From: Flavipsychrobacter sp.
GTDB taxonomy: Bacteria; Bacteroidota; Bacteroidia; Chitinophagales; Chitinophagaceae
Direction: 5' to 3'
NCBI GenBank assembly: GCA_044225795.1
Contig: JBGAIF010000007.1
Span: 130,095 to 194,094 of the forward strand
Length of the DNA stretch: 64,000 nucleotides
The position numbers were made by a program, and so were the translations under genes. Below the pieces are notes generated by a model that worked only from the letters and a program-made list of their open reading frames with translations, made no database searches and had not been told where the DNA came from. Of the stretch, positions 23,403 to 55,859 are shown in pieces (the stretch's first letter is position 1; each line of letters starts with the position of its first letter).

Positions 23403-23494
23403 CAGAAATGTTTATTTCCTGTTGATAGCTGCAAACTTATAATTTCTGGCACTGCATTTGTTGTACTAATTTTAGGAATAAAGAAGTACAACCT

Positions 23495-44697: not shown

Positions 44698-45336
44698 ATG
44701 AACAGAGACCTCATCTCCTATTACCGCGACAGGGCCGGGGAATATGATAAGCTATATGAAAAGCCTGAACGCCAGGCCGACCTGGCCACCATCACCACAA
44801 AGCTGCAAGACCTGTTTGCCGGACAGAACATCATGGAGATAGCCTGCGGCACCGGGTACTGGACAGAACGCATTGCCAAAACAGCCGCATCGGTATTTGC
44901 CACAGACATCAACGATACCATGCTGGCCATTGCGCAGGCCCGGCAACTGAGCAATGTGAGCTTCCGCAATGCCGACCTCTTTCACCTGCACTCGCTGAAA
45001 AAGTATGCAGGCATCTTCGGTGGTTTCATTCTCAGCCATATCACACGGCAGGATATGTCGCGGTTTCTGCAGGTGGTGAACAGCCAGGTGCAGCCGGGGG
45101 GCATTGTGGTGCTGATAGACAATGTCTTCAACGAGAAGAGCAGTACGCCTATAGCGGAAACGGACATCAGCGGGAACACTTACCAGAAGCGTGTGCTGGA
45201 CAATGGCGCTGAATACCTCATTCTCAAGAACTTTCATGCGCCGGCTTACCTGCAGCAGCACCTGATGGGTGTGGCTACGCAGGTGCGCATTACGACGCTG
45301 GAGTATTACTTCATCTTGTCTTATAAGACGGCGTAG
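44698..45336 (+). CDS. Class I SAM-dependent methyltransferase
   Basis: YYRDRAGEYD, MEIACGTGYWT, ATDIN, FILSHI. Confidence 0.92.
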   Translation: MNRDLISYYRDRAGEYDKLYEKPERQADLATITTKLQDLFAGQNIMEIACGTGYWTERIAKTAASVFATDINDTMLAIAQARQLSNVSFRNADLFHLHSLKKYAGIFGGFILSHITRQDMSRFLQVVNSQVQPGGIVVLIDNVFNEKSSTPIAETDISGNTYQKRVLDNGAEYLILKNFHAPAYLQQHLMGVATQVRITTLEYYFILSYKTA

Positions 45337-45349
45337 TTGTCTTATGATC

Positions 45350-45376
45350 TGTCGTTCTGAGCCGTGCGAAGAATCT
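45350..45376 (+). repeat. Solitary degenerate REP-like element (GTCATTCTGAGC..GCGAAGAATCT type)
   Basis: TGTCGTTCTGAGCCGTGCGAAGAATCT; single copy in the window; family assignment from memory. Confidence 0.45.
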
Positions 45377-45481
45377 TGTGATCGCGATGGAAAAGCTGAA
45401 TAGCTATATGGCTATCCAAGCTGTAGCGGATCAATAAAATCCCTCATAGCATTAATTCTTTTTGTATATTGTAACATATTG

Positions 45482-48400
45482 ATGCAAAGTGCTCGACTAA
45501 TTACGCAACTAGACCTAAATAACTGGGCAAAAACCTTTGACTCAAAAGGGCATCTCCCTCATTTAGTAAGCAGATTAGTATCAGCAACAACGCCCACTTC
45601 TACATTATATGAATTTCCTAGCGATAGCTCTGTTTTTATGGAAGGGTGGGATGGGATTGTGAAATGTAAAAGTGATTCAGGTATAGTGCCTATGGGCATC
45701 TCGCTTTGGGAATTTGGAACAGAAGACAACCCTAAAGGTAAGGCCGATCGCGACTACGGGAAAAGAACTAAGAACGCGCTGGGATATAATCCAAATGAAT
45801 GTACATTCATTTTTTTAACGCTCCGAAGTTGGAAATTCAAAGAAAAATGGAGGCAATCAAAATTACAAGAAGGATTTTGGCATGACGTTCGAGTTTACGA
45901 TGCTACAAATATTGCAGATTGGCTAGATTTGGCCCCTGCTGTTTCTCGATGGCTCTCCATTTTTATTAGGAGCTACCCTTCCGATGGACTACTGTCTGTT
46001 GATAGATTTTGGAAAGAGTGGTCAAATGGTCCAAACATGATTCTAAGCCCAGGTGTTATCACCAGTGGAAGAGAGTTTCAAACACAGCAATTGCAAGAAT
46101 TTCTATCCAACGAACCTGCTATCAAAGCGGTGAGAGCTTTTTCAAAAGACGAGGCAATTGCTTTCATTATTGCCAGCGCGATGCAGTTTGACAGTAAATT
46201 GCATTTAAACTTCTTTTCCAGAAGTTTGATTGTAGACACTGCCCCGAGTTTTAGAAGTATTAGCATAAACAAAAATGGGCTTATTCTCATATCAAGAGTG
46301 GAGGAAACTAATATACTATATGCTGGGGTATCAGATGGGCATCATATCCTTGTACCACTTGGACCTGATGACAATTTCAATCAAGACACAATTGACTTGC
46401 CACAAATTGAACGTGAAGGACAAATAAAATCTTTAATTGATTCCGGAATGTCAGAGGATGATGCAACAAGATACTCCAAGGAGTCGGCAAGGAACGTTAC
46501 AGTATTAAAACGACTTCTCAAATTCTCTCAAGATAAAATAGAATCAATTTCTTCTGAGGAAATAAAACAAATTATACCTGCCATCTTAATTGGAAGATGG
46601 GACGAAAATAAAGTTGGAGACAGAAATTTAATAGAAAAGTTGTCGGGGCAACCATATAACGATTACATTTCTTCACTCGTAGCATTCAAAGACTTTGAAC
46701 TTTCTCCAATAATACAAATTGGTAGTACTTGGCGGTTGGTATCACCAATGGATGCATGGACAAATTTGGCTGCCTATATTCCAAAAAAAAATCTAGAATT
46801 ACTTAAAGAAGTTTTTTTAGAAGCATTCGAAAATGGCAACCCAATCATCGAGCCGCCTAAAGATGCTCCAATATTTGCCTTTTTAAACAAGGAAACCAAA
46901 TATTCTAATTGGGCAAGAGAAGGACTAGTTCAGTCTTTAATTCTTATAAGCATATTTGGAGAAAGCTTCAAAATGCAAAATATTGGATCTCCACAAATCT
47001 GGGTAGACACCGTAATAGCATCACTGCTTAATAAGGTGGATAGTAGACTATGGATATCATTGAATAATGAATTACCATTAATTGCAGAGGCTTCCCCCAC
47101 TAGTTTCTTTGATGCATGTACTCGTTCTCTTGCTTTAGCTGAAAAGCCAATTATGGCCATGTTTGTAGAGAAGCAAGGTTTTTTAACAACAATTAGCAAT
47201 CATTCGGGATTGTTGTGGGCATTAGAAGGCTTGGCCTGGGAGCCTGAGTATTTACTTAACTCTAGTTTAATACTGAGTCAACTTGCGTCGCAAGATCCGG
47301 GTGGTAAAATCGGGAATAGACCTATAAATAGCTTGTTAGAAATATTTAAGCCCTGGCACTACCAAACGTTTGCCAATTTAGAAGAAAGATTGGCGGCATT
47401 GAAATACATCTCAAAAGAAGAAAAAGATGTTGCGTGGGATTTACTTTTGAAAATGTTACCACATGGTAATGAAGTAGCATTTGGAACGCACAAGATGCGA
47501 TGGAGAATGTTCAACAAAAACTTTACTAAACAATATACTGTCCGCGAAATATTACACACACACACTGCAATTATTGAAATACTAGTTTCATCATTTGACT
47601 ATTCAGAAGATAAATTTTCGCAAATACTAAGAAAATCCGTTCACTTACGTCCGCAAGACCGTCGAAAAGTGCTCGATTTTGCGGAAACGGAGTATCACAA
47701 GGTTGTTCAAGTAAAATACACTGCTTGGCACACATTAAGAGATATCATTTCATTCCAGAGATCATTTCCAAATTCAGAAATAAGTTTGCTTGATGAAGAA
47801 TTGACTCGATATGCAATCCTATATAATGACCTAACACCGACAAATGAAATCGACAAATACATTTGGTTATTTAATGAGTCATACCCACGACTACCGGAGG
47901 GTTACGTAGAAGATAAAAATCTAAATTTCGAGCAAAAACAGAACGCTAGAAATAGGATTCTTGAAGAGCAAAGAACCTTGGGACTAAAGAAAATCCTGAA
48001 CCTCAGTAACTTAAAAGAACTAGTAGAGCTTGCAGAAATCGTGAAAGTACCAAGTACCATCGGTAGTACATTAGCGCACTTGGTCTGCGATGCAAATGAT
48101 CTTTTTTTTTTAATGGAATTGCTGAAATCTAAAGGAAACAAACTGATTGTTGTTCAATCATTTATTACATCAAAGTTCTTCATTAAAGGTTTAGAGTGGA
48201 TTTTATCCCTTTATGAACAAATAGTTGCCAGTAATTTTCATAACGAAGCGCTAAGCAATTTCCTTACTTCACTTCCGTTAACGGAGGAATTGTTTGTTTT
48301 TATTGAGAAAAAAAATAAAGAAATCATAAAAGAGTATTGGGAGCGTGTGAATCCAAATTTTTTTGGATTGAAGAGTGAACTAAAGATTATGGGCATCAAA

Positions 48401-49279
48401 CATCTCATTGATTGCAAAAGATTCTTTAGTGCAATTGAAATGGTATCCCTTTGGCGTGACGAAATCCCAACAAGTTTAATTGTTGAGCTGCTTACACTAA
48501 CTGCGACTCAAGGCGCTAGTGAACCAATAAATTTTGACAATTATACCATCGGCAACCTCTTCGAAACAATTGACGATAGGAATGATGTCGAACATGATAA
48601 GCTAATTCAATTAGAATGGCTTTTTCTACCAATTCTGGCCTCTTACGGATCAATGCGAAATCCTAAGGTTTTGCACGATGAGTTAGCAAATAACCCCATA
48701 TTTTTTGTTGATGTTTTAAAATTTTTATACCTCCCCAAAAACAGGAAGTTGCTCGAAAAAGAACGAATGGGGCTATCCAGTGAAATAATTAAAAACAGAA
48801 GTGAACAAGCCTTCCATTTGCTCAATACATGGAAGACCATTCCAGGAATGAATGAAGGGGGCTCAATTGATTATGAAAAATTATCCTCTTGGATAACGGA
48901 TGTTCGAAACTTAGCAAGTGAATCAGACAGATTGGACCCCGCAGATATTCAAATCGGCAAAATGCTTGCTCACTATCCAGAAAAGGAGGAAGTTTGGCCA
49001 TCAGATGAAATAGCAACCATTATTGAATCAATAAACACTGATAGCTTGAAGCAAAACTATAGGTCGGAATTATTTAACAAGAGAGGTTCTTCTACAAGAG
49101 CAATGGACGCAGGTGGCACTATAGAAAGAGAACACGCTAAGTACTTCGAAAAACTAGCTTCAGCACACAAATACACCCACCCAATTATCTCAAATATTTT
49201 CAAAACCTTAGCCAAAGGTTATATGTCAGATGCGAAACGACAAGATGAAGACGCAGCACGTAACCGATTGGAATATTAG
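45482..49279 (+). CDS. Low-GC 1265-aa protein, putative nuclease-fold + degenerate NTPase + helical domains (candidate defence gene)
   Basis: Intact ORF; sampled lines 28-37% GC versus roughly 50% in flanking genes; GWDG..WEFG N-terminal motif; see findings. Confidence 0.6.
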   Translation: MQSARLITQLDLNNWAKTFDSKGHLPHLVSRLVSATTPTSTLYEFPSDSSVFMEGWDGIVKCKSDSGIVPMGISLWEFGTEDNPKGKADRDYGKRTKNALGYNPNECTFIFLTLRSWKFKEKWRQSKLQEGFWHDVRVYDATNIADWLDLAPAVSRWLSIFIRSYPSDGLLSVDRFWKEWSNGPNMILSPGVITSGREFQTQQLQEFLSNEPAIKAVRAFSKDEAIAFIIASAMQFDSKLHLNFFSRSLIVDTAPSFRSISINKNGLILISRVEETNILYAGVSDGHHILVPLGPDDNFNQDTIDLPQIEREGQIKSLIDSGMSEDDATRYSKESARNVTVLKRLLKFSQDKIESISSEEIKQIIPAILIGRWDENKVGDRNLIEKLSGQPYNDYISSLVAFKDFELSPIIQIGSTWRLVSPMDAWTNLAAYIPKKNLELLKEVFLEAFENGNPIIEPPKDAPIFAFLNKETKYSNWAREGLVQSLILISIFGESFKMQNIGSPQIWVDTVIASLLNKVDSRLWISLNNELPLIAEASPTSFFDACTRSLALAEKPIMAMFVEKQGFLTTISNHSGLLWALEGLAWEPEYLLNSSLILSQLASQDPGGKIGNRPINSLLEIFKPWHYQTFANLEERLAALKYISKEEKDVAWDLLLKMLPHGNEVAFGTHKMRWRMFNKNFTKQYTVREILHTHTAIIEILVSSFDYSEDKFSQILRKSVHLRPQDRRKVLDFAETEYHKVVQVKYTAWHTLRDIISFQRSFPNSEISLLDEELTRYAILYNDLTPTNEIDKYIWLFNESYPRLPEGYVEDKNLNFEQKQNARNRILEEQRTLGLKKILNLSNLKELVELAEIVKVPSTIGSTLAHLVCDANDLFFLMELLKSKGNKLIVVQSFITSKFFIKGLEWILSLYEQIVASNFHNEALSNFLTSLPLTEELFVFIEKKNKEIIKEYWERVNPNFFGLKSELKIMGIKHLIDCKRFFSAIEMVSLWRDEIPTSLIVELLTLTATQGASEPINFDNYTIGNLFETIDDRNDVEHDKLIQLEWLFLPILASYGSMRNPKVLHDELANNPIFFVDVLKFLYLPKNRKLLEKERMGLSSEIIKNRSEQAFHLLNTWKTIPGMNEGGSIDYEKLSSWITDVRNLASESDRLDPADIQIGKMLAHYPEKEEVWPSDEIATIIESINTDSLKQNYRSELFNKRGSSTRAMDAGGTIEREHAKYFEKLASAHKYTHPIISNIFKTLAKGYMSDAKRQDEDAARNRLEY

Positions 49280-49415
49280 AAGCTGTCTTTTTGAGATAAA
49301 ATGAAACTCTTCAAATTTGGCATACTTCTTGCTGCATCATAAGTGCCCCTAAACTGTTGTCAGTTTAGGCAGATGACATGAAAAATGTTACATTTTACGT
49401 AACATTTAGCGAGCA

Positions 49416-49705
49416 GCAGAAATCAGGCAACTTTAGGCAGAAATTGAGCAATTTCACACACCATTTCTGCACACATTGAGGTTGATTATCAATGGGTTTT
49501 ACTCAAAATCGTACACTTTCCTGTGAAAAAGAAAATTGTACACTTTTAAGCAGGTGATATGCAAAAGGGCTGAACGCGCAGAAACTGGCAATAATGGGCA
49601 GAAATTGAGCAATTTCGTACACCATTTCTGCACACATTGATGTTGATTATCAATGAATTTTGCTCAAAATCGTACACTTTCCAGTGAAAAAAAAGAAATT
49701 GTACA
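49416..49705 (+). repeat. Tandem ~127-bp imperfect duplication with internal palindromes
   Basis: 49416-49542 versus 49578-49705; core 49436-49542 about 90% identical. Confidence 0.92.
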
Positions 49706-49748
49706 GTTTCTCCCGTTTAGGGGTGAGGGCATTACCTTTGCGGCTCTT

Positions 49749-51644
49749 ATGCATTATGTATCGGCAGAACGGATCAGTAAGAGCTACGGCATCAAGCCGC
49801 TGTTCACAAATATCACTTTTCACATCAGCGAGGGCGATAAGATAGCCCTGATAGCGCGCAATGGCAGCGGTAAGAGTACGCTACTAAAGATACTGGCGGG
49901 CAGGGACACGGTAGATGAAGGTACCATATGGATACATAAGGATGTAACGGTGGCGCTGTTTGAACAGGAGCCGCAGTTTGCCGAGGACCTGAGCATATTA
50001 GATAATATCTTCCATTACCGCCACCCGGTGGCAGAGGCCCTGCGCAACTATGAGCGGGTGATCAGCAGCGAGCATAAAGACCCCGATGCACTGGCGACGG
50101 CACTGGCACGGCTGGACGAGCTGGGGGCCTGGGACTTTGAAGCGAAGGTGCACCAGATACTGAACAAGCTGAACATACGCAACCTGCAACAGCAGGTGAA
50201 GACCCTAAGCGGGGGGCAGCGCAAGCGTGTGGCGCTGGCACAGGTGCTGATAGACATAGGTTTTGAGCATAAGCATGTGCTGCTGATCATGGACGAACCG
50301 ACGAACCACCTGGATGTGGCAATGGTGGAATGGCTGGAGAATTACCTGAACCAGCAGAATGTGACGCTGCTGATGGTGACGCACGACAGGTACTTCCTGG
50401 AGGATGTGTGTGACGAGATATGGGAGCTGGACAATGAGCAGCTCTATACCTACAAGGGCGACTACCAGGACTACTTAGAGAAAAAGGCGGCACGTATAGA
50501 GAATACGCTGGCCAATATAGACAAGGCGCGCAACCTGTACCGCAAGGAACTGGAGTGGATGCGCAAGCAGCCACGGGCGCGCACAGTGAAGAGCAAGAGC
50601 CGGCAGGATAATTTTTACGACATACAGACAAAGGCGAAGCAGAAGGTGGAGGACCTGCAGGTGGAGCTGCAAATGAAGATGAACCGCCTGGGGGGCAAGA
50701 TAGCGGAACTAAAAAAGGTGTATAAGAGCTATGGCGACAAGGTGATACTGAAGGGGTTTGACTATACATTCAAAAAGGGGGAAAGGATAGGCATAGTGGG
50801 ACAAAACGGCGCGGGCAAGAGTACCTTCCTGAATATGCTGCAGGGCATAGAGCCTGCAGACAGCGGCAAGATAAACATAGGCGAGACGGTGGTGTTCGGC
50901 AACTTTTCGCAGCAGGGACTGGAGATAAAGGAGGACATGCGCATCATAGAGTATGTGAAGAACATAGCGGAGAACTTTCCGCTGGCGGATGGGGGCAGCA
51001 TATCGGCATCGCAGTTCCTGACGCTGTTCCTTTTTCCGCCGGAGCAGCAGTACACCTACCTCTCCAAGCTGAGCGGTGGTGAGAAGAAAAGGCTGCAATT
51101 GCTCACGGTGCTGTTCAGGAACCCGAACTTCCTGATACTGGACGAACCGACGAATGACCTGGACCTGCCGACGCTGGCAGTGCTGGAGAATTTCCTGAGC
51201 GAGTACAGGGGCTGCCTGCTGATCGTATCGCACGACAGGTATTTTATGGACAGGCTGGTGGACCACTTGTTCGTATTTGAAGGGAATGGTGTGGTGAGGG
51301 ATTTCCCGGGCAACTACAGCACGTACCGCGTAGAAGAGCGGGCACGGGAGAAGATGAAGGATGCTACGCCAAAGGCAGAAGAGGCGGCTACGGCCACTGA
51401 AGCAAAGCCACAGGATAAGAAGAAGGTATCGTTCAAGGACAAGCGGGAGTATGAGCAACTGGAAAAAGATATAGCGGCACTGGAGGCGGAGAAGACGACG
51501 GTAACGGAAAAGATGATGGACCAGAACATCAACTATGACGATATGCAGCGGCTGAGCAACCGTATGGTGCAGATAACCGAGCTGCTGGAACAGAAGGAAA
51601 TGAGGTGGCTGGAGCTGAGCGAGGTAATAACCCCGGGCTCCTAA
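49749..51644 (+). CDS. ABC-F family ATP-binding protein (Uup-like)
   Basis: Two ABC domains (ARNGSGKST / LSGGQ / DEPTNHLD; GQNGAGKST / LSGGE / DEPTNDLD) and a C-terminal coiled coil; ATG 49749 after TACCTTTG at 49733. Confidence 0.95.
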   Translation: MHYVSAERISKSYGIKPLFTNITFHISEGDKIALIARNGSGKSTLLKILAGRDTVDEGTIWIHKDVTVALFEQEPQFAEDLSILDNIFHYRHPVAEALRNYERVISSEHKDPDALATALARLDELGAWDFEAKVHQILNKLNIRNLQQQVKTLSGGQRKRVALAQVLIDIGFEHKHVLLIMDEPTNHLDVAMVEWLENYLNQQNVTLLMVTHDRYFLEDVCDEIWELDNEQLYTYKGDYQDYLEKKAARIENTLANIDKARNLYRKELEWMRKQPRARTVKSKSRQDNFYDIQTKAKQKVEDLQVELQMKMNRLGGKIAELKKVYKSYGDKVILKGFDYTFKKGERIGIVGQNGAGKSTFLNMLQGIEPADSGKINIGETVVFGNFSQQGLEIKEDMRIIEYVKNIAENFPLADGGSISASQFLTLFLFPPEQQYTYLSKLSGGEKKRLQLLTVLFRNPNFLILDEPTNDLDLPTLAVLENFLSEYRGCLLIVSHDRYFMDRLVDHLFVFEGNGVVRDFPGNYSTYRVEERAREKMKDATPKAEEAATATEAKPQDKKKVSFKDKREYEQLEKDIAALEAEKTTVTEKMMDQNINYDDMQRLSNRMVQITELLEQKEMRWLELSEVITPGS

Positions 51645-51817
51645 AGGGGAATGATGCCTGATACTCGATGGTTAGATACCGGATGAGGGAGGATAATGGC
51701 CCGGGGGTCTGTATATCTGCGGGCTCGCAATGGGGGGTAAGAATTAGCGAAATATCCATATTTTAAGGGCTATTTAGCTTATATTTGCGATTCAATATCC
51801 ACACAAAAACTATAAAA

Positions 51818-52549
51818 ATGAGAGCAATAAAGTATGCATTTACGGGGCTGCTGCTGGCAGCGGGCATGACAAGCGCTATGGCGCAGAATGGTGATGAGAT
51901 CATCAGCAAGCACATAGACGCGATAGGCGGTGAGGCCAACTGGGCAAAAATAACGTCCATGAAGATGGTGGGTACTATGAAGGTTCAGGGCATGGAACTG
52001 GGCATGACACAGACGACAGTACACAATAAGGCCATGCGCACCGACATCAGCGTAATGGGCAGTGAAGGCTACATGATAGCCACTACCACAGAGGGCTGGA
52101 TGTATATGCCTATGCAGGGTGTGAGCAAGGCTACCCCGATACCTGCCGAACAACTGAAGATGATGAAGGACAAGCTGAGCGTACGCGCCAATATGCTGGC
52201 GGATAAGTCGACAATAGCAAAGGCAGAACTGCTGGGCAAGGATACAGTGAACAAGGTGCCTTGCTACAAAGTGAAGGTAACGGACAAGGATGGAAATATG
52301 CAGACAGCTTACTTTGACGCGTCTACATACTACATGGTGCGTGTAGAGGCCAAGGCAAGTCCGGATGCAGGCGACCAGGAGGTGAACATAGATTTCAGCA
52401 ATTTCCAGAAAACACCGGAAGGCGTGGTACTGGCCATGACGATGGGCTCTCCGCAGGGTGATATCACCTTCAAGACCGTGGAGCTGAACAAACCGATAGA
52501 CGAAAAGATCTTCAAGCCTACGCAGGAAGAAATGGAAGGAAAGAAATAA
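51818..52549 (+). CDS. Exported LolA-like (lipoprotein-sorting-like) protein
   Basis: Signal ending AMA-Q; IISKHIDAIGGEANW, YFDASTY, DFSNFQK; TATATTTG at 51780. Confidence 0.7.
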   Translation: MRAIKYAFTGLLLAAGMTSAMAQNGDEIISKHIDAIGGEANWAKITSMKMVGTMKVQGMELGMTQTTVHNKAMRTDISVMGSEGYMIATTTEGWMYMPMQGVSKATPIPAEQLKMMKDKLSVRANMLADKSTIAKAELLGKDTVNKVPCYKVKVTDKDGNMQTAYFDASTYYMVRVEAKASPDAGDQEVNIDFSNFQKTPEGVVLAMTMGSPQGDITFKTVELNKPIDEKIFKPTQEEMEGKK

Positions 52550-52570
52550 GCTCAACAGCATTTACGTTAT

Positions 52571-52593
52571 AATGGCTGCCCCCGGGCAGCCAT
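52571..52593. terminator. Hairpin, probable terminator
   Basis: AATGGCTGCC-CCG-GGCAGCCATT. Confidence 0.7.
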
Positions 52594-52626
52594 TGTTATC
52601 TAAACACTATCTTAGCGTAATAACTC

Positions 52627-53211
52627 CTGCTTACGACAGACCAAAACTTTCTTACGGCATTGCGGTCGGGCGACCGTGAGGCATTCCGCCAACTGGTGAC
52701 AGACTACCGGCAGCGGGTGTTCAACACTGCTATTGGTATGGTACAGGACCATGGCAACGCCGAAGACATTACACAGGAGGTGTTCATCACCGTGTTCCGG
52801 TCGGTACTGTCGTTCAATGGAAAGTCGGCGCTCTCTACGTGGATATACCGCATCACTGTTAACAAATGCCTGGACCACCTGCGGGCGCAAGGGCGGCAAA
52901 AGCGGCACGGTGTGTTCAGCATATTCTTCCAGGGGGAGCCCGCGTATGAAAAGCCGGTATTTGACCATCCCGGGGTGAAACTGGAGCATAAGGAGAACGC
53001 GAAATACCTGTTCGCGGCGATAGATACCCTGCCGGATAACCAGCGGACGGTGTTTGTGCTGGTGCATGTGGAAGACCTGCCGCAGAAGGAGGTGGCGGAG
53101 ATCATGAATGTGTCGGTAAAGGCGGTGGAGTCGCTGCTGCAGCGTGCCAAGGCCAACCTGCGCAGGAAACTGGGGGATATTTATGAGTCGAACCGAAGGA
53201 AAAGTAATTAA
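52627..53211 (+). CDS. ECF RNA polymerase sigma factor
   Basis: GDREAFRQLV, AEDITQEVFI, STWIYRITVNKCLD, LPDNQR, EVAEIM..SVKAVESLLQRA; start CTG 52627 or TTG 52660. Confidence 0.93.
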   Translation: MLTTDQNFLTALRSGDREAFRQLVTDYRQRVFNTAIGMVQDHGNAEDITQEVFITVFRSVLSFNGKSALSTWIYRITVNKCLDHLRAQGRQKRHGVFSIFFQGEPAYEKPVFDHPGVKLEHKENAKYLFAAIDTLPDNQRTVFVLVHVEDLPQKEVAEIMNVSVKAVESLLQRAKANLRRKLGDIYESNRRKSN

Positions 53212-53231
53212 AGGACGTCTAAAATAATGTT

Positions 53232-53540
53232 ATGGAAAATAATATAGGTAGAGAGGAGTGGATAGAGCGGGTGATGGGCAGCACGCAGGGCATACGCCGT
53301 GCGGAACCCGCATCAGACCTGTATGACCGTGTGACTGACCGAATGAACCGGGGTAGTGCAGTAAAGACCATGCCGTTCCCGGTAGCCCGGTGGGTGGCCG
53401 CGGCCATATTGCTGCTGGCGCTCAACATAGGGTCAATACTACACTATACCAATATCTCCGGGCAAGCTGCCCCCTCAGGCACCCCGGCACAGGACCCCTT
53501 GGCTAATTACATACAAACAGAATCTACTTACAACTATTAG
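53232..53540 (+). CDS. Putative anti-sigma membrane protein
   Basis: 102 aa, single TM (WVAAAILLLALNIG), directly after the ECF sigma. Confidence 0.65.
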   Translation: MENNIGREEWIERVMGSTQGIRRAEPASDLYDRVTDRMNRGSAVKTMPFPVARWVAAAILLLALNIGSILHYTNISGQAAPSGTPAQDPLANYIQTESTYNY

Positions 53541-53542
53541 GC

Positions 53543-54100
53543 ATGGGCAATAACGGAAAAATATGGAAGCTGTTGGTGGTGCTGCTGCTGATCTGCAATG
53601 CGGGCATCATCGCATTCATGTGGCTGCGCCCGTGCCGGCCACCTGTACCACCGCCCCCACCGGCAGGAGGACAGGGCGAACAGGCCCGGAACTTTGTGAT
53701 ACGCACACTGAATTTTACGGACGAGCAGGTAAGGCAGTATGATGTGCTGATAGGCGACCACCGCAGGGCTATGGATAGCCTGCGTAAGGTGCAATCGGAC
53801 GCGCGGCAGCAATTGTTTGGGGGACTGAAGAATGGAACCGATCCTAATGTGGCGGCGCAGACGATCGCGGCCTGCCAGAAAGAGATAGAGACGGTGACCT
53901 TCCACCACTTTGAAAAGGTAAGAGTATTATGCACAGACGCACAAAAACCGGAGTTTGACAATATCATTGGTGAGGTGATCAAAAAAATGAACGGGGGCAA
54001 CCGCAGGCCTCCGCATCCCGGCGGCCCCGGTGACGGACCACCACCTCCGCCGCAGGGAGCAGGCGGACCTATGCCGCCTCCGCCACCTCCGGGTAATTAA
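53543..54100 (+). CDS. Spy/CpxP-like periplasmic protein
   Basis: TM anchor; LNFTDEQVRQY and LCTDAQK (LTxxQ-like) motifs; Pro-rich ends. Confidence 0.75.
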   Translation: MGNNGKIWKLLVVLLLICNAGIIAFMWLRPCRPPVPPPPPAGGQGEQARNFVIRTLNFTDEQVRQYDVLIGDHRRAMDSLRKVQSDARQQLFGGLKNGTDPNVAAQTIAACQKEIETVTFHHFEKVRVLCTDAQKPEFDNIIGEVIKKMNGGNRRPPHPGGPGDGPPPPPQGAGGPMPPPPPPGN

Positions 54101-54117
54101 ATTTGTAATTTAGATGC

Positions 54118-54822
54118 ATGAAGCGGTTGCTATTCATTTTATGTATTGCCTGCCACATGGCTGCATTTGCAGGTGGCGGTAGGGTGACGATAATGATAAT
54201 ACCTGTATTCAACGGACAGCAGCTTACACTATCAGACCAATACTATATTGATGAGCATGGCGACACGCTCTACATTGACCTGTTCAGGTTCTATATCACT
54301 AACATGACACTAAATGGCAACGGTGAGGCAAAGGATGCGAACAGCCACCTGGTAGATGCGGAGCAGAAAAGTACGAACAGCTTTACGATAGATAACGTAC
54401 CATTGGGAAATTACACGTCCATCAGCTTCACGATAGGGGTGGATAGCAGCACAAACGTATCGGGGGCCAATAGCGGCGACCTGGACCCTGTAAAGGGCAT
54501 GTACTGGGCATGGAACAGTGGCTACATCATGGCCAAGCTGGAAGGGCACGCCAGGGTATGCAAGACGCTGCATCACGCATTTGAGTTTCACATAGGCGGC
54601 TATATGCCACCCTACAATGCAGCAAGGACAGTGACCCTGCCACTCAGCCGTAATGCGATCATAGAAAAGGATGGTAATACCGTTATCACTATCAAGGCTG
54701 ATGCCGCAGCATGGCTTTCGGGGAAGCTGGACCTGGGTAAGGAAAACAGCATAGTGATTCCCGGCAGGGAGGCGTGCGGAATGGCAGACCGGTATATGAA
54801 GATGTTCTCAATAGCTGACTGA
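54118..54822 (+). CDS. mbnP: MbnP-family copper-binding protein
   Basis: FRFYITN, FTIGVDS, GMYWAWNSGYIMAKLEG (WxW), FEFHIGG. Confidence 0.88.
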   Translation: MKRLLFILCIACHMAAFAGGGRVTIMIIPVFNGQQLTLSDQYYIDEHGDTLYIDLFRFYITNMTLNGNGEAKDANSHLVDAEQKSTNSFTIDNVPLGNYTSISFTIGVDSSTNVSGANSGDLDPVKGMYWAWNSGYIMAKLEGHARVCKTLHHAFEFHIGGYMPPYNAARTVTLPLSRNAIIEKDGNTVITIKADAAAWLSGKLDLGKENSIVIPGREACGMADRYMKMFSIAD

Positions 54823-55859
54823 TGAATAGCCGCGTGCTGAAATATGTGCTGCCTGTATTTGTATTCGGTATCATTCTTATCACATCAGGATTCAGGAAGA
54901 AGAATAACGTGCAATTTGTACAGCCGAAGGGTTGGCCGAAGCCGGTGTATGACTTTTCGCAGAACGAGATTACTGATGCGGGGTTCAGCCTGGGAAAGAA
55001 GTTGTTCTATGATCCCATATTGTCAGTAGATAATTCTATATCGTGCGCCAGTTGTCATGCCCAGTGGAGCGCGTTCACACACACAGATCACGCACTGAGC
55101 CACGGCGTGCAGGGGCTGAAGGGGAAAAGAAATTCTCTTACTTTATTCAACCTGGCCTGGAATAAGGCCTTTATGTGGGATGGCGGTGTGAATCACCTGG
55201 AGGTGCAGCCCCTGGCACCGCTTACCAACACGTCAGAAATGGGTACAACACTGGAAGCGGTAGTAAGGAAACTGGACACTGCGAAAGGATACAAGAGCCG
55301 GTTCTATGCCACATTCGGCGATAGTGCCATCACCGGGCAAAGAGTGCTGAAGGCAATAGCACAGTTTACAGGAATGTTTGAATCATTCAACTCCAGGTAC
55401 GACAAATATATGCGGCACGAACCCGGAGGAGCATTATCAGAACAGGAGCTGAATGGATTGAAAATATTCAGGAAGAATTGTGCGTCGTGTCACGAGGAGC
55501 CACTGTTCACAAACTATAGCTACCAGAACACCGGATTGCCCGTTGACCCGGAGCTAAATGATTATGGCCGGATGAATATTACAAGAGATGCACAAGATTC
55601 ACTGAAGTTCAGGGTACCCTCGCTAAGGAATGTGGTACTCTCCTACCCTTACCTGCATGACGGCAGGTTCCGTTCCATCAGGCAAGTGCTGGACCATTAT
55701 ACGGATGGTGTGGTGCAGGGGGCTACCCTTGCGGAACAACTTAGAAAACCAATGGTATTGAGTGACGCGGACAAGGAGGATATACTGGCATTTCTGAAGA
55801 CGCTGACGGATGTGGAATTCTTATCGGATAAGCGGTTTGCACCCGACACTTCCCGGTAA
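54822..55859 (+). CDS. mbnH: MbnH/MauG-family di-heme cytochrome c peroxidase
   Basis: LGKKLFYDP, two CASCH heme motifs, FMWDGG, FRVPSLRNV, PYLHDGRF; 1-bp overlap with mbnP. Confidence 0.88.
   Translation: MNSRVLKYVLPVFVFGIILITSGFRKKNNVQFVQPKGWPKPVYDFSQNEITDAGFSLGKKLFYDPILSVDNSISCASCHAQWSAFTHTDHALSHGVQGLKGKRNSLTLFNLAWNKAFMWDGGVNHLEVQPLAPLTNTSEMGTTLEAVVRKLDTAKGYKSRFYATFGDSAITGQRVLKAIAQFTGMFESFNSRYDKYMRHEPGGALSEQELNGLKIFRKNCASCHEEPLFTNYSYQNTGLPVDPELNDYGRMNITRDAQDSLKFRVPSLRNVVLSYPYLHDGRFRSIRQVLDHYTDGVVQGATLAEQLRKPMVLSDADKEDILAFLKTLTDVEFLSDKRFAPDTSR

Follow-up and report, generated by a model that had tools for sequence, protein, structure and literature searches.

A tandem pair from a dispersed intergenic module family, preceded by a sigma-54-type promoter motif, upstream of an ABC-F gene in Flavipsychrobacter sp.

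The window analysed here, a stretch of 64,000 nucleotides, was taken from the genome of Flavipsychrobacter sp. (Chitinophagaceae; assembly GCA_044225795.1; 3.94 Mb in 18 contigs), where it covers positions 130095–194094 of contig JBGAIF010000007.1 (199 kb; C12 in our numbering). Coordinates without a contig name are positions in the window. The subject of this report is a pair of box-rich, imperfect direct repeats located between the stop codon of an open reading frame (ORF) of 1266 amino acids (49279) and the start of an ABC-F ATPase gene (49749). An earlier note on this DNA had described the locus as non-coding and placed it between these two genes, and this was borne out. The features of the locus are as follows.

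45479–49279, + strand: orphan ORF of 1266 amino acids, upstream of and outside the cassette (ORF list, GC profile)
49312–49347, + strand: sigma-54-type promoter motif of the cassette, core TGGCATACTTCTTGC at 49318–49332 (regular expression; position weight matrix score 30.4)
49348–49369, + strand: perfect 9-bp hairpin CCTAAACTG-TTGT-CAGTTTAGG in the variable linker, directly after the predicted transcription start (sequence reading)
49416–49442, + strand: lead boxes of the first unit, GCAGAAA twice, corresponding to the 'box 0' region of the family (alignment with other copies)
49443–49542, + strand: module copy 1 (nhmmer match C12:179537–179636, 57 bits; 64 bits with model R1)
49543–49603, + strand: inter-copy spacer with a degenerate promoter-like stretch (CTGGCAATAATGGGCAG) and repeated GCAGAAA boxes (sequence reading)
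49604–49704, + strand: module copy 2 (nhmmer match C12:179698–179798)
49733–49740, + strand: the ABC-F gene's own Bacteroidota-type -7 box, TACCTTTG (regular expression)
49749–51644, + strand: ABC-F ATPase gene, putative target of the cassette (ORF)

Tandem pair and dispersed module family

The claim of two imperfect copies about 161 bp apart was supported both by the sequence itself and by a repeat finder, which returned direct copies at 49421–49533 and 49582–49694 with a period of 161 bp and 88% identity across 113 nt, as well as an extra block of 21 nt (49526–49546 and 49689–49709) with 86% identity. Regular expressions recovered most of the motifs listed in the earlier note, namely GCAGAAA twice per copy (49416, 49437, 49578 and 49598), the dyad GAAATTG-AG-CAATTTC in both copies, and CATTGA-N9-TCAATG (49474 and 49635), inside which lies TTGATTATCAA (49482 and 49643). 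They further located GAAATTGAGCAATTTC at 49440 and 49601 and TTTCTGC at 49464 and 49625. Six occurrences of AAAT(C/T)GTACA(C/G)TTT had been proposed; those at 49506, 49533, 49667 and 49696 were found as described, while those at 49450 and 49611 turned out to be weak versions (TCGTACA at 49615). Copy 1 thus reads as the palindrome GAAATTG-AG-CAATTTC, a TCTGCACA box, TTGATTATCAA (49482–49492), a TCGTACA box, GTGAAAAA (49523) and a TTGTACA box.

Searching the genome with a single unit yielded numerous partial matches, and iterated nhmmer converged on 55 matches, 40 of them full-length with sharp ends (model of about 100 nt). A sequence-only covariance model (R1) detected 54 copies with scores of 31–92 bits, all but four exceeding 40 bits. 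The module of about 100 bp is present in this genome in about 50 copies at about 39 loci, and the similarity of the two window copies is far above chance because the module recurs this often. The motifs were conserved genome-wide as well as genus-wide, so that the pair is not the strain-specific neutral duplication, with motifs unconserved elsewhere, that had been named as the finding that would speak against a multi-protein binding array. No match to the family was found in Rfam, and a literature search on the box sequence or on intergenic repeats of Chitinophagaceae yielded nothing relevant.

Alignment of the copies revealed a mosaic in which five or six TTGCNCA heptamers, including an inverted one, are arranged around a TTGATnATCAA palindrome and followed by GTGAAAAA. 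The family consensus begins with aTTGCaCAcTGTGCAAt (palindrome), N5, TTGCaCAc, N7, TTGAttaTCAat, N3, TTa, N10 and ATTGCaCACtTt, and continues in its 3' part with N5, GTGAAAAA, N3 and AATTGCgCA. The inverted box forms a palindrome, the last box closes the module after GTGAAAAA, and a further box is often found 10–12 nt 5' of the module. In the copies of this genome the central dyad and the TTA together correspond to an IHF-like WATCAANNNNTTR. The boxes and the dyad were near invariant, with the central position of TTGCNCA free, and the linkers carried almost no information.

The window copies are divergent members of the family, with boxes changed to GCAGAAA, TCTGCACA, TCGTACA and TTGTACA and with a shortened palindrome. 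They were 87% identical to one another and at most about 80% identical to any other copy in the genome. As the nearest relative of copy 2 in the genome was copy 1, the comparison points to a local duplication as the origin of the pair. Other tandem arrays with periods of 150–205 bp were found on C7 (three copies), C3, C10, C11 (two arrays), C13, C16, C18, C1 and C5. In these arrays, too, the copies are each other's closest relatives, indicating that arrays grow by local duplication, and their internal spacers likewise resemble decayed copies of the promoter part.

Tests for an RNA or a protein product were negative. Rfam scans at gathering thresholds and by E-value detected only a tRNA-Leu elsewhere in the window; the locus itself and six further module loci were without a match, and tRNA scans were negative too. 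No consensus fold emerged from RNAalifold, whose energies were –0.92 kcal/mol across 34 modules and –2.4 kcal/mol across 36 whole units. A small ORF was considered and rejected: reading from the conserved RTGAAAAAGAAA or (A/G)TGAAAAAGAAA (RTGAAAAA) gave random lengths of 3–96 codons with unrelated tails. One frame of 222 codons from (A/G)TGAAAAAGAAA runs into udk by chance, and no intact gene in the genome starts from this motif.

In three modules the last box was interrupted or replaced by the perfect palindrome ATCCCGATAGCTATCGGGA or the near-identical ATCCCGATAACTTTCGGGA (approximate positions C5:194171–194195, C12:115715–115738 and C9:258790–258810). This palindrome may represent a separate, tiny palindromic insertion element.

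Promoter motif, gene context and distribution

Comparison of the 150 nt 5' of each first module uncovered a recurrent sigma-54-type motif, tTGGCAy-N5-TTGy(G)GyAT, which showed the canonical GG-to-GC spacing and was located, co-oriented, 50–125 nt 5' of the first module at 33 loci. In the window it lies 39 nt after the stop codon of the orphan ORF and points through the modules at ABC-F. The extended pattern matched 30 sites genome-wide, 21 of which were followed by a module, and a reversed control yielded one match. Scanning with a position weight matrix gave about 45 strong matches, about 33 followed by TTGCNCA modules and about 10 by arrays of other boxes. Across congeners, the pattern matched 2–15 times compared to 0–5 times for the reversed control, and this genome was an outlier with its 30 matches. 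Since the motif was enriched over the reversed control in most congeners, we regard it, on sequence grounds, as a genuine promoter class in the genus. Promoter motif and module are both conserved, and the linker of 20–100 nt between them is variable and unalignable, as expected for two functional blocks kept in cis. The linker, which in the window contains the hairpin, showed no conservation among family members.

The variant arrays carry boxes of the type TGAGCAA or GGAAATTTCC around the same (C/T)TGATTATCA(G/A) dyad and are apparently sister families that share this layout around the TGATTATCA dyad. Such arrays were observed at C9:54790, C9:140401, C5:112747 and C6:349855, with GGAAATTTCC or GGAAGC-like boxes and with TGAGCAA occurring six times.

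The genome encodes two rpoN genes (Sigma54_DBD) and six full enhancer-binding proteins (Sigma54_activat). At C6:223150–227100, rpoN2 precedes genes for an NtrC-like regulator of REC-AAA+-HTH architecture and for a PAS histidine kinase. The motif TTTGGCTTCATGCTTGC, of sigma-54 type and located 45 nt 5' of the rpoN2 start codon, suggests that this operon is probably autoregulated. In an in-silico survey of Bacteroidota published in 2025, sigma-54 promoters were assigned to ribosomal-protein and chaperone genes, and rpoN autoregulation was described as well (PMC12316311). The window also holds a stand-alone sigma-54-type promoter motif, TGGCACTGCATTTGTTGTA, at 23447–23465 (C12:153541), about 45 nt 5' of an ORF starting MTLSETWFMEG, with no array after it.

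The gene context of the copies was derived from crude ORF calls, and downstream genes were identified by eye from their translations. At about 33 of the 39 loci, a gene in the same orientation starts 22–300 nt beyond the 3' end of the module or array; clear exceptions, with convergent or antisense orientation, were confined to four loci. Downstream genes include rplK-rplA, rpsA, ffh, metK, fabI, etfB, gcvH, udk, folK, ribBA, hsp20, bamD, ppsA and ABC-F. A functionally themed regulon was rejected, as these genes share no common theme. A canonical TAnnTTTG box of their own between module and start codon was present in 11 of 35 downstream genes, against a genome background of 24%.

Beyond this genome, weaker copies (24–38 bits, up to 29 per genome) were detected with the covariance model in 15 of 24 congeners, and no module was found with it in 16 other families of the order. 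Modules of congeners retain the core layout (box, CATT, N4, TTGATAATCAAT, about 19 nt, box, further boxes), and the preferred central base of the box varies between species. A second species, G041, which has a single rpoN gene, was inspected at 12 promoter sites, five of which read TGGCACACATTTTGYGGYA. A promoter-plus-module layout was present at 7 of the 12: after the promoter motif come, in this order, an unrelated linker of about 100 nt, AAAAGTGCGCAA-nTT-TTGCGCA, a TGAnnnTCA dyad with TTTAAACC, and AAAAGTGCGCAATTT. At five of these seven loci the best model match lies on the strand opposite the promoter. This inverted pairing argues for the behaviour of an enhancer-like DNA element, judging from the arrangement of the motifs, and speaks against a strand-specific RNA role and against the module being the promoter of the downstream gene.

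A strict dependence on the second rpoN gene was rejected as well, because modules occur in 4 of 12 congeners that lack rpoN2 and because G041, with its single rpoN, carries cassettes.

Interpretation and rival explanations

The idea of a multi-site protein-binding array, put forward in the earlier note, fits in its general form because conserved boxes alternate with free linkers, no RNA fold was found and the polarity flips between species; the accompanying proposals of an origin, an att site or a mobile-element end found no support. We consider the module most likely to be a spreading regulatory cassette and not an origin or integration site. Specifically, we tentatively propose, at a probability of roughly 0.4, that it is an array that binds an enhancer-binding protein together with a bending protein and would serve the sigma-54 promoter directed toward ABC-F. 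This assignment builds on the observed family with its boundaries and internal structure, on its association with the promoter motif and on the change of orientation between species, together with the lack of an RNA or coding signal; from these we infer sigma-54 dependence, the type of box-binding protein, looping and read-through. An NtrC-family enhancer-binding protein would oligomerise on the box array, and a bending protein on the central dyad would aid looping back to the closed complex of sigma-54 polymerase. ATP hydrolysis would then open the promoter, and the transcript would pass through the modules into the downstream gene. The gene would in this way gain a signal-dependent promoter besides its own sigma-A promoter, and tandem duplication of the module would add binding sites.

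Known sigma-54 enhancers, such as those of NtrC at glnAp2, of LuxO at qrr (TTGCA-N3-TGCAA) and of FlrC at flaA and flgK, resemble the module in combining a GG/GC promoter with clustered dyads or half-sites of TGCA type within about 200 bp, a bend site, flexible spacing and, judging from the comparison of this genome with G041, apparent orientation independence. They differ from it in that the module is a cassette of about 40 copies in front of unrelated housekeeping genes, with mostly direct boxes, and is often promoter-free in congeners. Enhancers of this kind usually lie upstream of the promoter and the module lies downstream, which weighs against our proposal; the FlrC sites downstream of the flaA and flgK starts show that such a position is possible. 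In Vibrio cholerae, FlrC enhancers were reportedly placed downstream of the sigma-54 start site by Correa and Klose in 2005.

Several further observations count against the proposal. The -12 element reads TTGT (T for C) in about 40% of the promoter motifs, and the variant arrays with their very different boxes would have to be bound by several different proteins. Among 28 module loci of five other congeners, about 23 lacked a sigma-54-like motif within 700 nt on either strand, so the module exists without that promoter, as a genus-wide repeat. In these other congeners it is often the box-1 side of the module that faces the nearest gene start. rpoN2 was found in 11 of 23 congeners, and all 11 have modules, but 4 of the 12 that lack rpoN2 have them too. 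The positions of modules differ from species to species, as would be expected of a mobile or fast-turnover repeat. Furthermore, C3 and C11 have in common a segment of 488 bp whose end coincides exactly with the 3' boundary of the module. The unpaired modules, the unconserved positions and this segment keep an explanation as a repeat alive. Gene-less derivatives or relics of a transposase element lie within 0.4–3.5 kb of module loci at six of seven sites. The pairing with the promoter is, in our reading of these data, a trait of some lineages in which the composite unit was amplified.

If the unit is a working sigma-54 promoter with its enhancer, it would show how a regulon can grow quickly by copying one unit before dozens of genes, sparing the separate evolution of each site, and would provide natural enhancers that act from downstream and in either orientation in a phylum whose sigma-54 control has barely been studied. 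In its boldest form, which we regard as unlikely, a self-spreading promoter-enhancer cassette would have wired about 40 unrelated housekeeping genes to one two-component signal. This signal would come from the operon of rpoN2, the NtrC-like regulator and the PAS kinase; the enhancer would act from downstream in either orientation, the regulon would have grown by amplification of a mobile unit, and this amplification would have happened separately in two or more species of the genus.

The enhancer proposal has to be weighed above all against a selfish or structural intergenic repeat of the BIME/RIP or Correia type, devoid of a dedicated regulatory role. Such a repeat would have spread by a copying mechanism and by local tandem duplication and may bind architectural proteins of the host; the promoter motif would have hitch-hiked with the amplified composite unit, and the orientation bias would reflect tolerated insertions. 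The multi-copy, genus-restricted and species-specific nature of the module and its unconserved positions agree with this, as do its tandem arrays of nearest-relative copies, the 488-bp segment stopping at the module end, the repeat-rich setting with transposase relics nearby at six of seven sites, the lack of the sigma-54 motif at most modules of congeners, and the fact that matches in fragmented congener assemblies lie on short contigs or contig ends. BIME-1/RIP (RIB) elements of Escherichia coli are likewise dispersed, non-coding intergenic mosaics of about 100 bp in tens to hundreds of copies, with short motifs around a central IHF-type site and occasional tandem arrays. BIMEs, however, are built from alternating GC-rich palindromic REPs located mostly after genes, within transcripts, whereas the module consists mostly of direct AT-rich heptamers before genes, is coupled here to a sigma-54-type promoter motif, and does not share the hairpins that flank REP-associated transposases. 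Correia elements (CREE/NEMIS) of Neisseria are also short non-coding repeats before genes, with an IHF site and promoter-like sequences; the latter can alter the expression of neighbouring genes. Unlike these elements with their 26-bp terminal inverted repeats and TA target duplications, the module starts and ends with boxes of the same orientation, the downstream flanks of its copies have no homology in common, and no target-site duplications were seen, although no systematic search for them was made. The absence of terminal inverted repeats, the absence of inverted pairs bracketing cargo, and transposase genes with different hairpins also spoke against the suggestion that the array is a mobile-element end. 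In addition, near-invariant boxes between free linkers differ from the uniform decay of neutral copies, the pairing of promoter and module recurs in G041 with the module reversed, and about 33 of 39 loci lie directly 5' of gene starts. We judge the repeat explanation somewhat unlikely; if it holds, the module would still represent a family of mosaic intergenic repeats new to Chitinophagaceae, of a kind that annotators would otherwise misread as origins, att sites or small RNAs and that breaks short-read assemblies.

Other functions were considerably harder to reconcile with the data. The module could act as a portable sigma-A promoter in which the TTG of the dyad or of box 4 would be the -33 element and the next (A/T)TTGCNCA a weak, TAnnTTTG-like -7 element at a spacing of 19–20 nt. 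The consensus spacing (dyad TTG, 19 nt, box 4, 20 nt, box 5) would suit this role, several box 5 sequences read nAnnTTTG, and one perfect TATATTTG is located 22 nt from the udk start codon. Moreover, folK and two ORFs of 135 and 81 amino acids start 25–28 nt after the module with no other -7 box, and the sharp 3' boundary falls where transcription would start. Yet the boxes do not preserve the TA of the -7 consensus, a separate -7 box occurs before downstream genes at about the background frequency, the module is reversed relative to the promoter in G041 and at one locus there (L171) also relative to the downstream gene, and its box-1 side faces the nearest gene start in other congeners; we judge a sigma-A promoter very unlikely. 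A transcribed element, i.e. a small RNA or 5' leader driven by sigma-54 whose UUGCNCA motifs, repeated and single-stranded, would bind an RNA-binding protein or sequester it, as CrcZ, CsrB and RsmZ do, is equally unlikely. CrcZ is itself a sigma-54-dependent RNA with repeated motifs, the promoter motif is directed into the module, one strand carries most of the boxes as direct repeats, and the absence of a stable fold is what a sponge RNA would show. On the other hand, the boxes of G041 lie on the other strand relative to the promoter, most modules of congeners have no promoter upstream, there is no terminator signature, about 40 loci are implausibly many for a sponge RNA, and the central DNA dyad with its 1-nt centre is unable to fold into an RNA hairpin. 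A site of recombination or replication, such as a cassette hotspot with att-like arm sites or an origin with iterons, is extremely unlikely. The module's direct repeats, single inverted repeat and central dyad with an IHF-like site, all within 100–250 bp, do resemble the layout of attP arm arrays and origins, and the adjoining gene of 1266 amino acids is a low-GC orphan confined to this genome. Iterons and attP arrays differ, however, from a module that occupies many loci on many contigs beside housekeeping genes, with no adjacent initiator or integrase gene. With respect to an origin, dnaA lies on C16, a single DnaA-like box (one mismatch) and no DnaA-box cluster occurred within 8 kb, and the supposed skew switch near the array is just a local stretch of positive GC skew of 10 kb: the skew on C12 is negative from 0 to 175 kb, positive only from 175 to 185 kb (45000–55000 of the window) and negative afterwards. 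With respect to an att site or cassette hotspot, C12 carries none of the eight Phage_integrase (tyrosine recombinase) matches, the neighbours are housekeeping genes and not cassettes, about 38 other module loci flank core genes, and the central dyad is too short for the core site of a tyrosine recombinase.

Neighbouring repeats and flanking genes

Module loci are repeat-rich. A REP-associated tyrosine transposase gene (NF047646, 112.8 bits) adjoins the array on C18; it encodes 176 amino acids (C18:42358–42888) and lies within an element at C18:42150–43140 (L130). The gene is flanked by inverted hairpins, GTTCCGGATG...CATCCGGAAC, and by direct repeats of about 126 nt that contain a sigma-54-type motif. 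Gene-less derivatives of this element were found at C16:68743–69094 and C16:70117–70462, and relics adjoin module loci on C3, C11, C16 (425k) and C1 (222.9k). A REP mobilised by such a transposase was rejected as an explanation of the module, since TTGCNCA boxes flank none of the four Y1 transposase genes, which have different hairpins on their sides; we therefore do not regard these enzymes as the ones that mobilise the module. At C11:179860–181330 (L121), rplK-rplA is preceded not by the usual secE-nusG genes but by about 1 kb of repeat-filled intergenic DNA. This DNA holds two modules, transposase relics and a sigma-54-type promoter motif, and synteny is broken here at a core ribosomal operon.

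The ORF upstream of the window array has a GC content of 0.36–0.37, compared to 0.46 for the genome. It gave no match in Pfam, NCBIfam or PADLOC, had no counterpart in 30 congeners, and resembles an orphan that was acquired horizontally as a single gene and inserted directly 5' of the cassette.

Orthologues of the downstream ABC-F protein were found at 80 loci of Chitinophagaceae with identities of 56–84%. No module was present 5' of ABC-F in these 80 family-level loci or in 19 congeners, and these module-free upstream regions ruled out a conserved ABC-F operator. Likewise, none of 11 module loci of congeners lies beside an orthologue of a gene that bears a module in this genome. In the 19 module-free congener loci, TA(C/T)CTTTGC is located about 8 nt 5' of the ATG, and the TACCTTTGC -7 box is the only element kept there. 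In several congeners, short runs of direct repeats (CTATCAACCTATC, ATCTACTATCTACTAAC) were observed directly 5' of the ABC-F -7 box (L107, L112, L114, L116 and L117); these are different, simple repeats, positioned at the site that the modules occupy in this genome.

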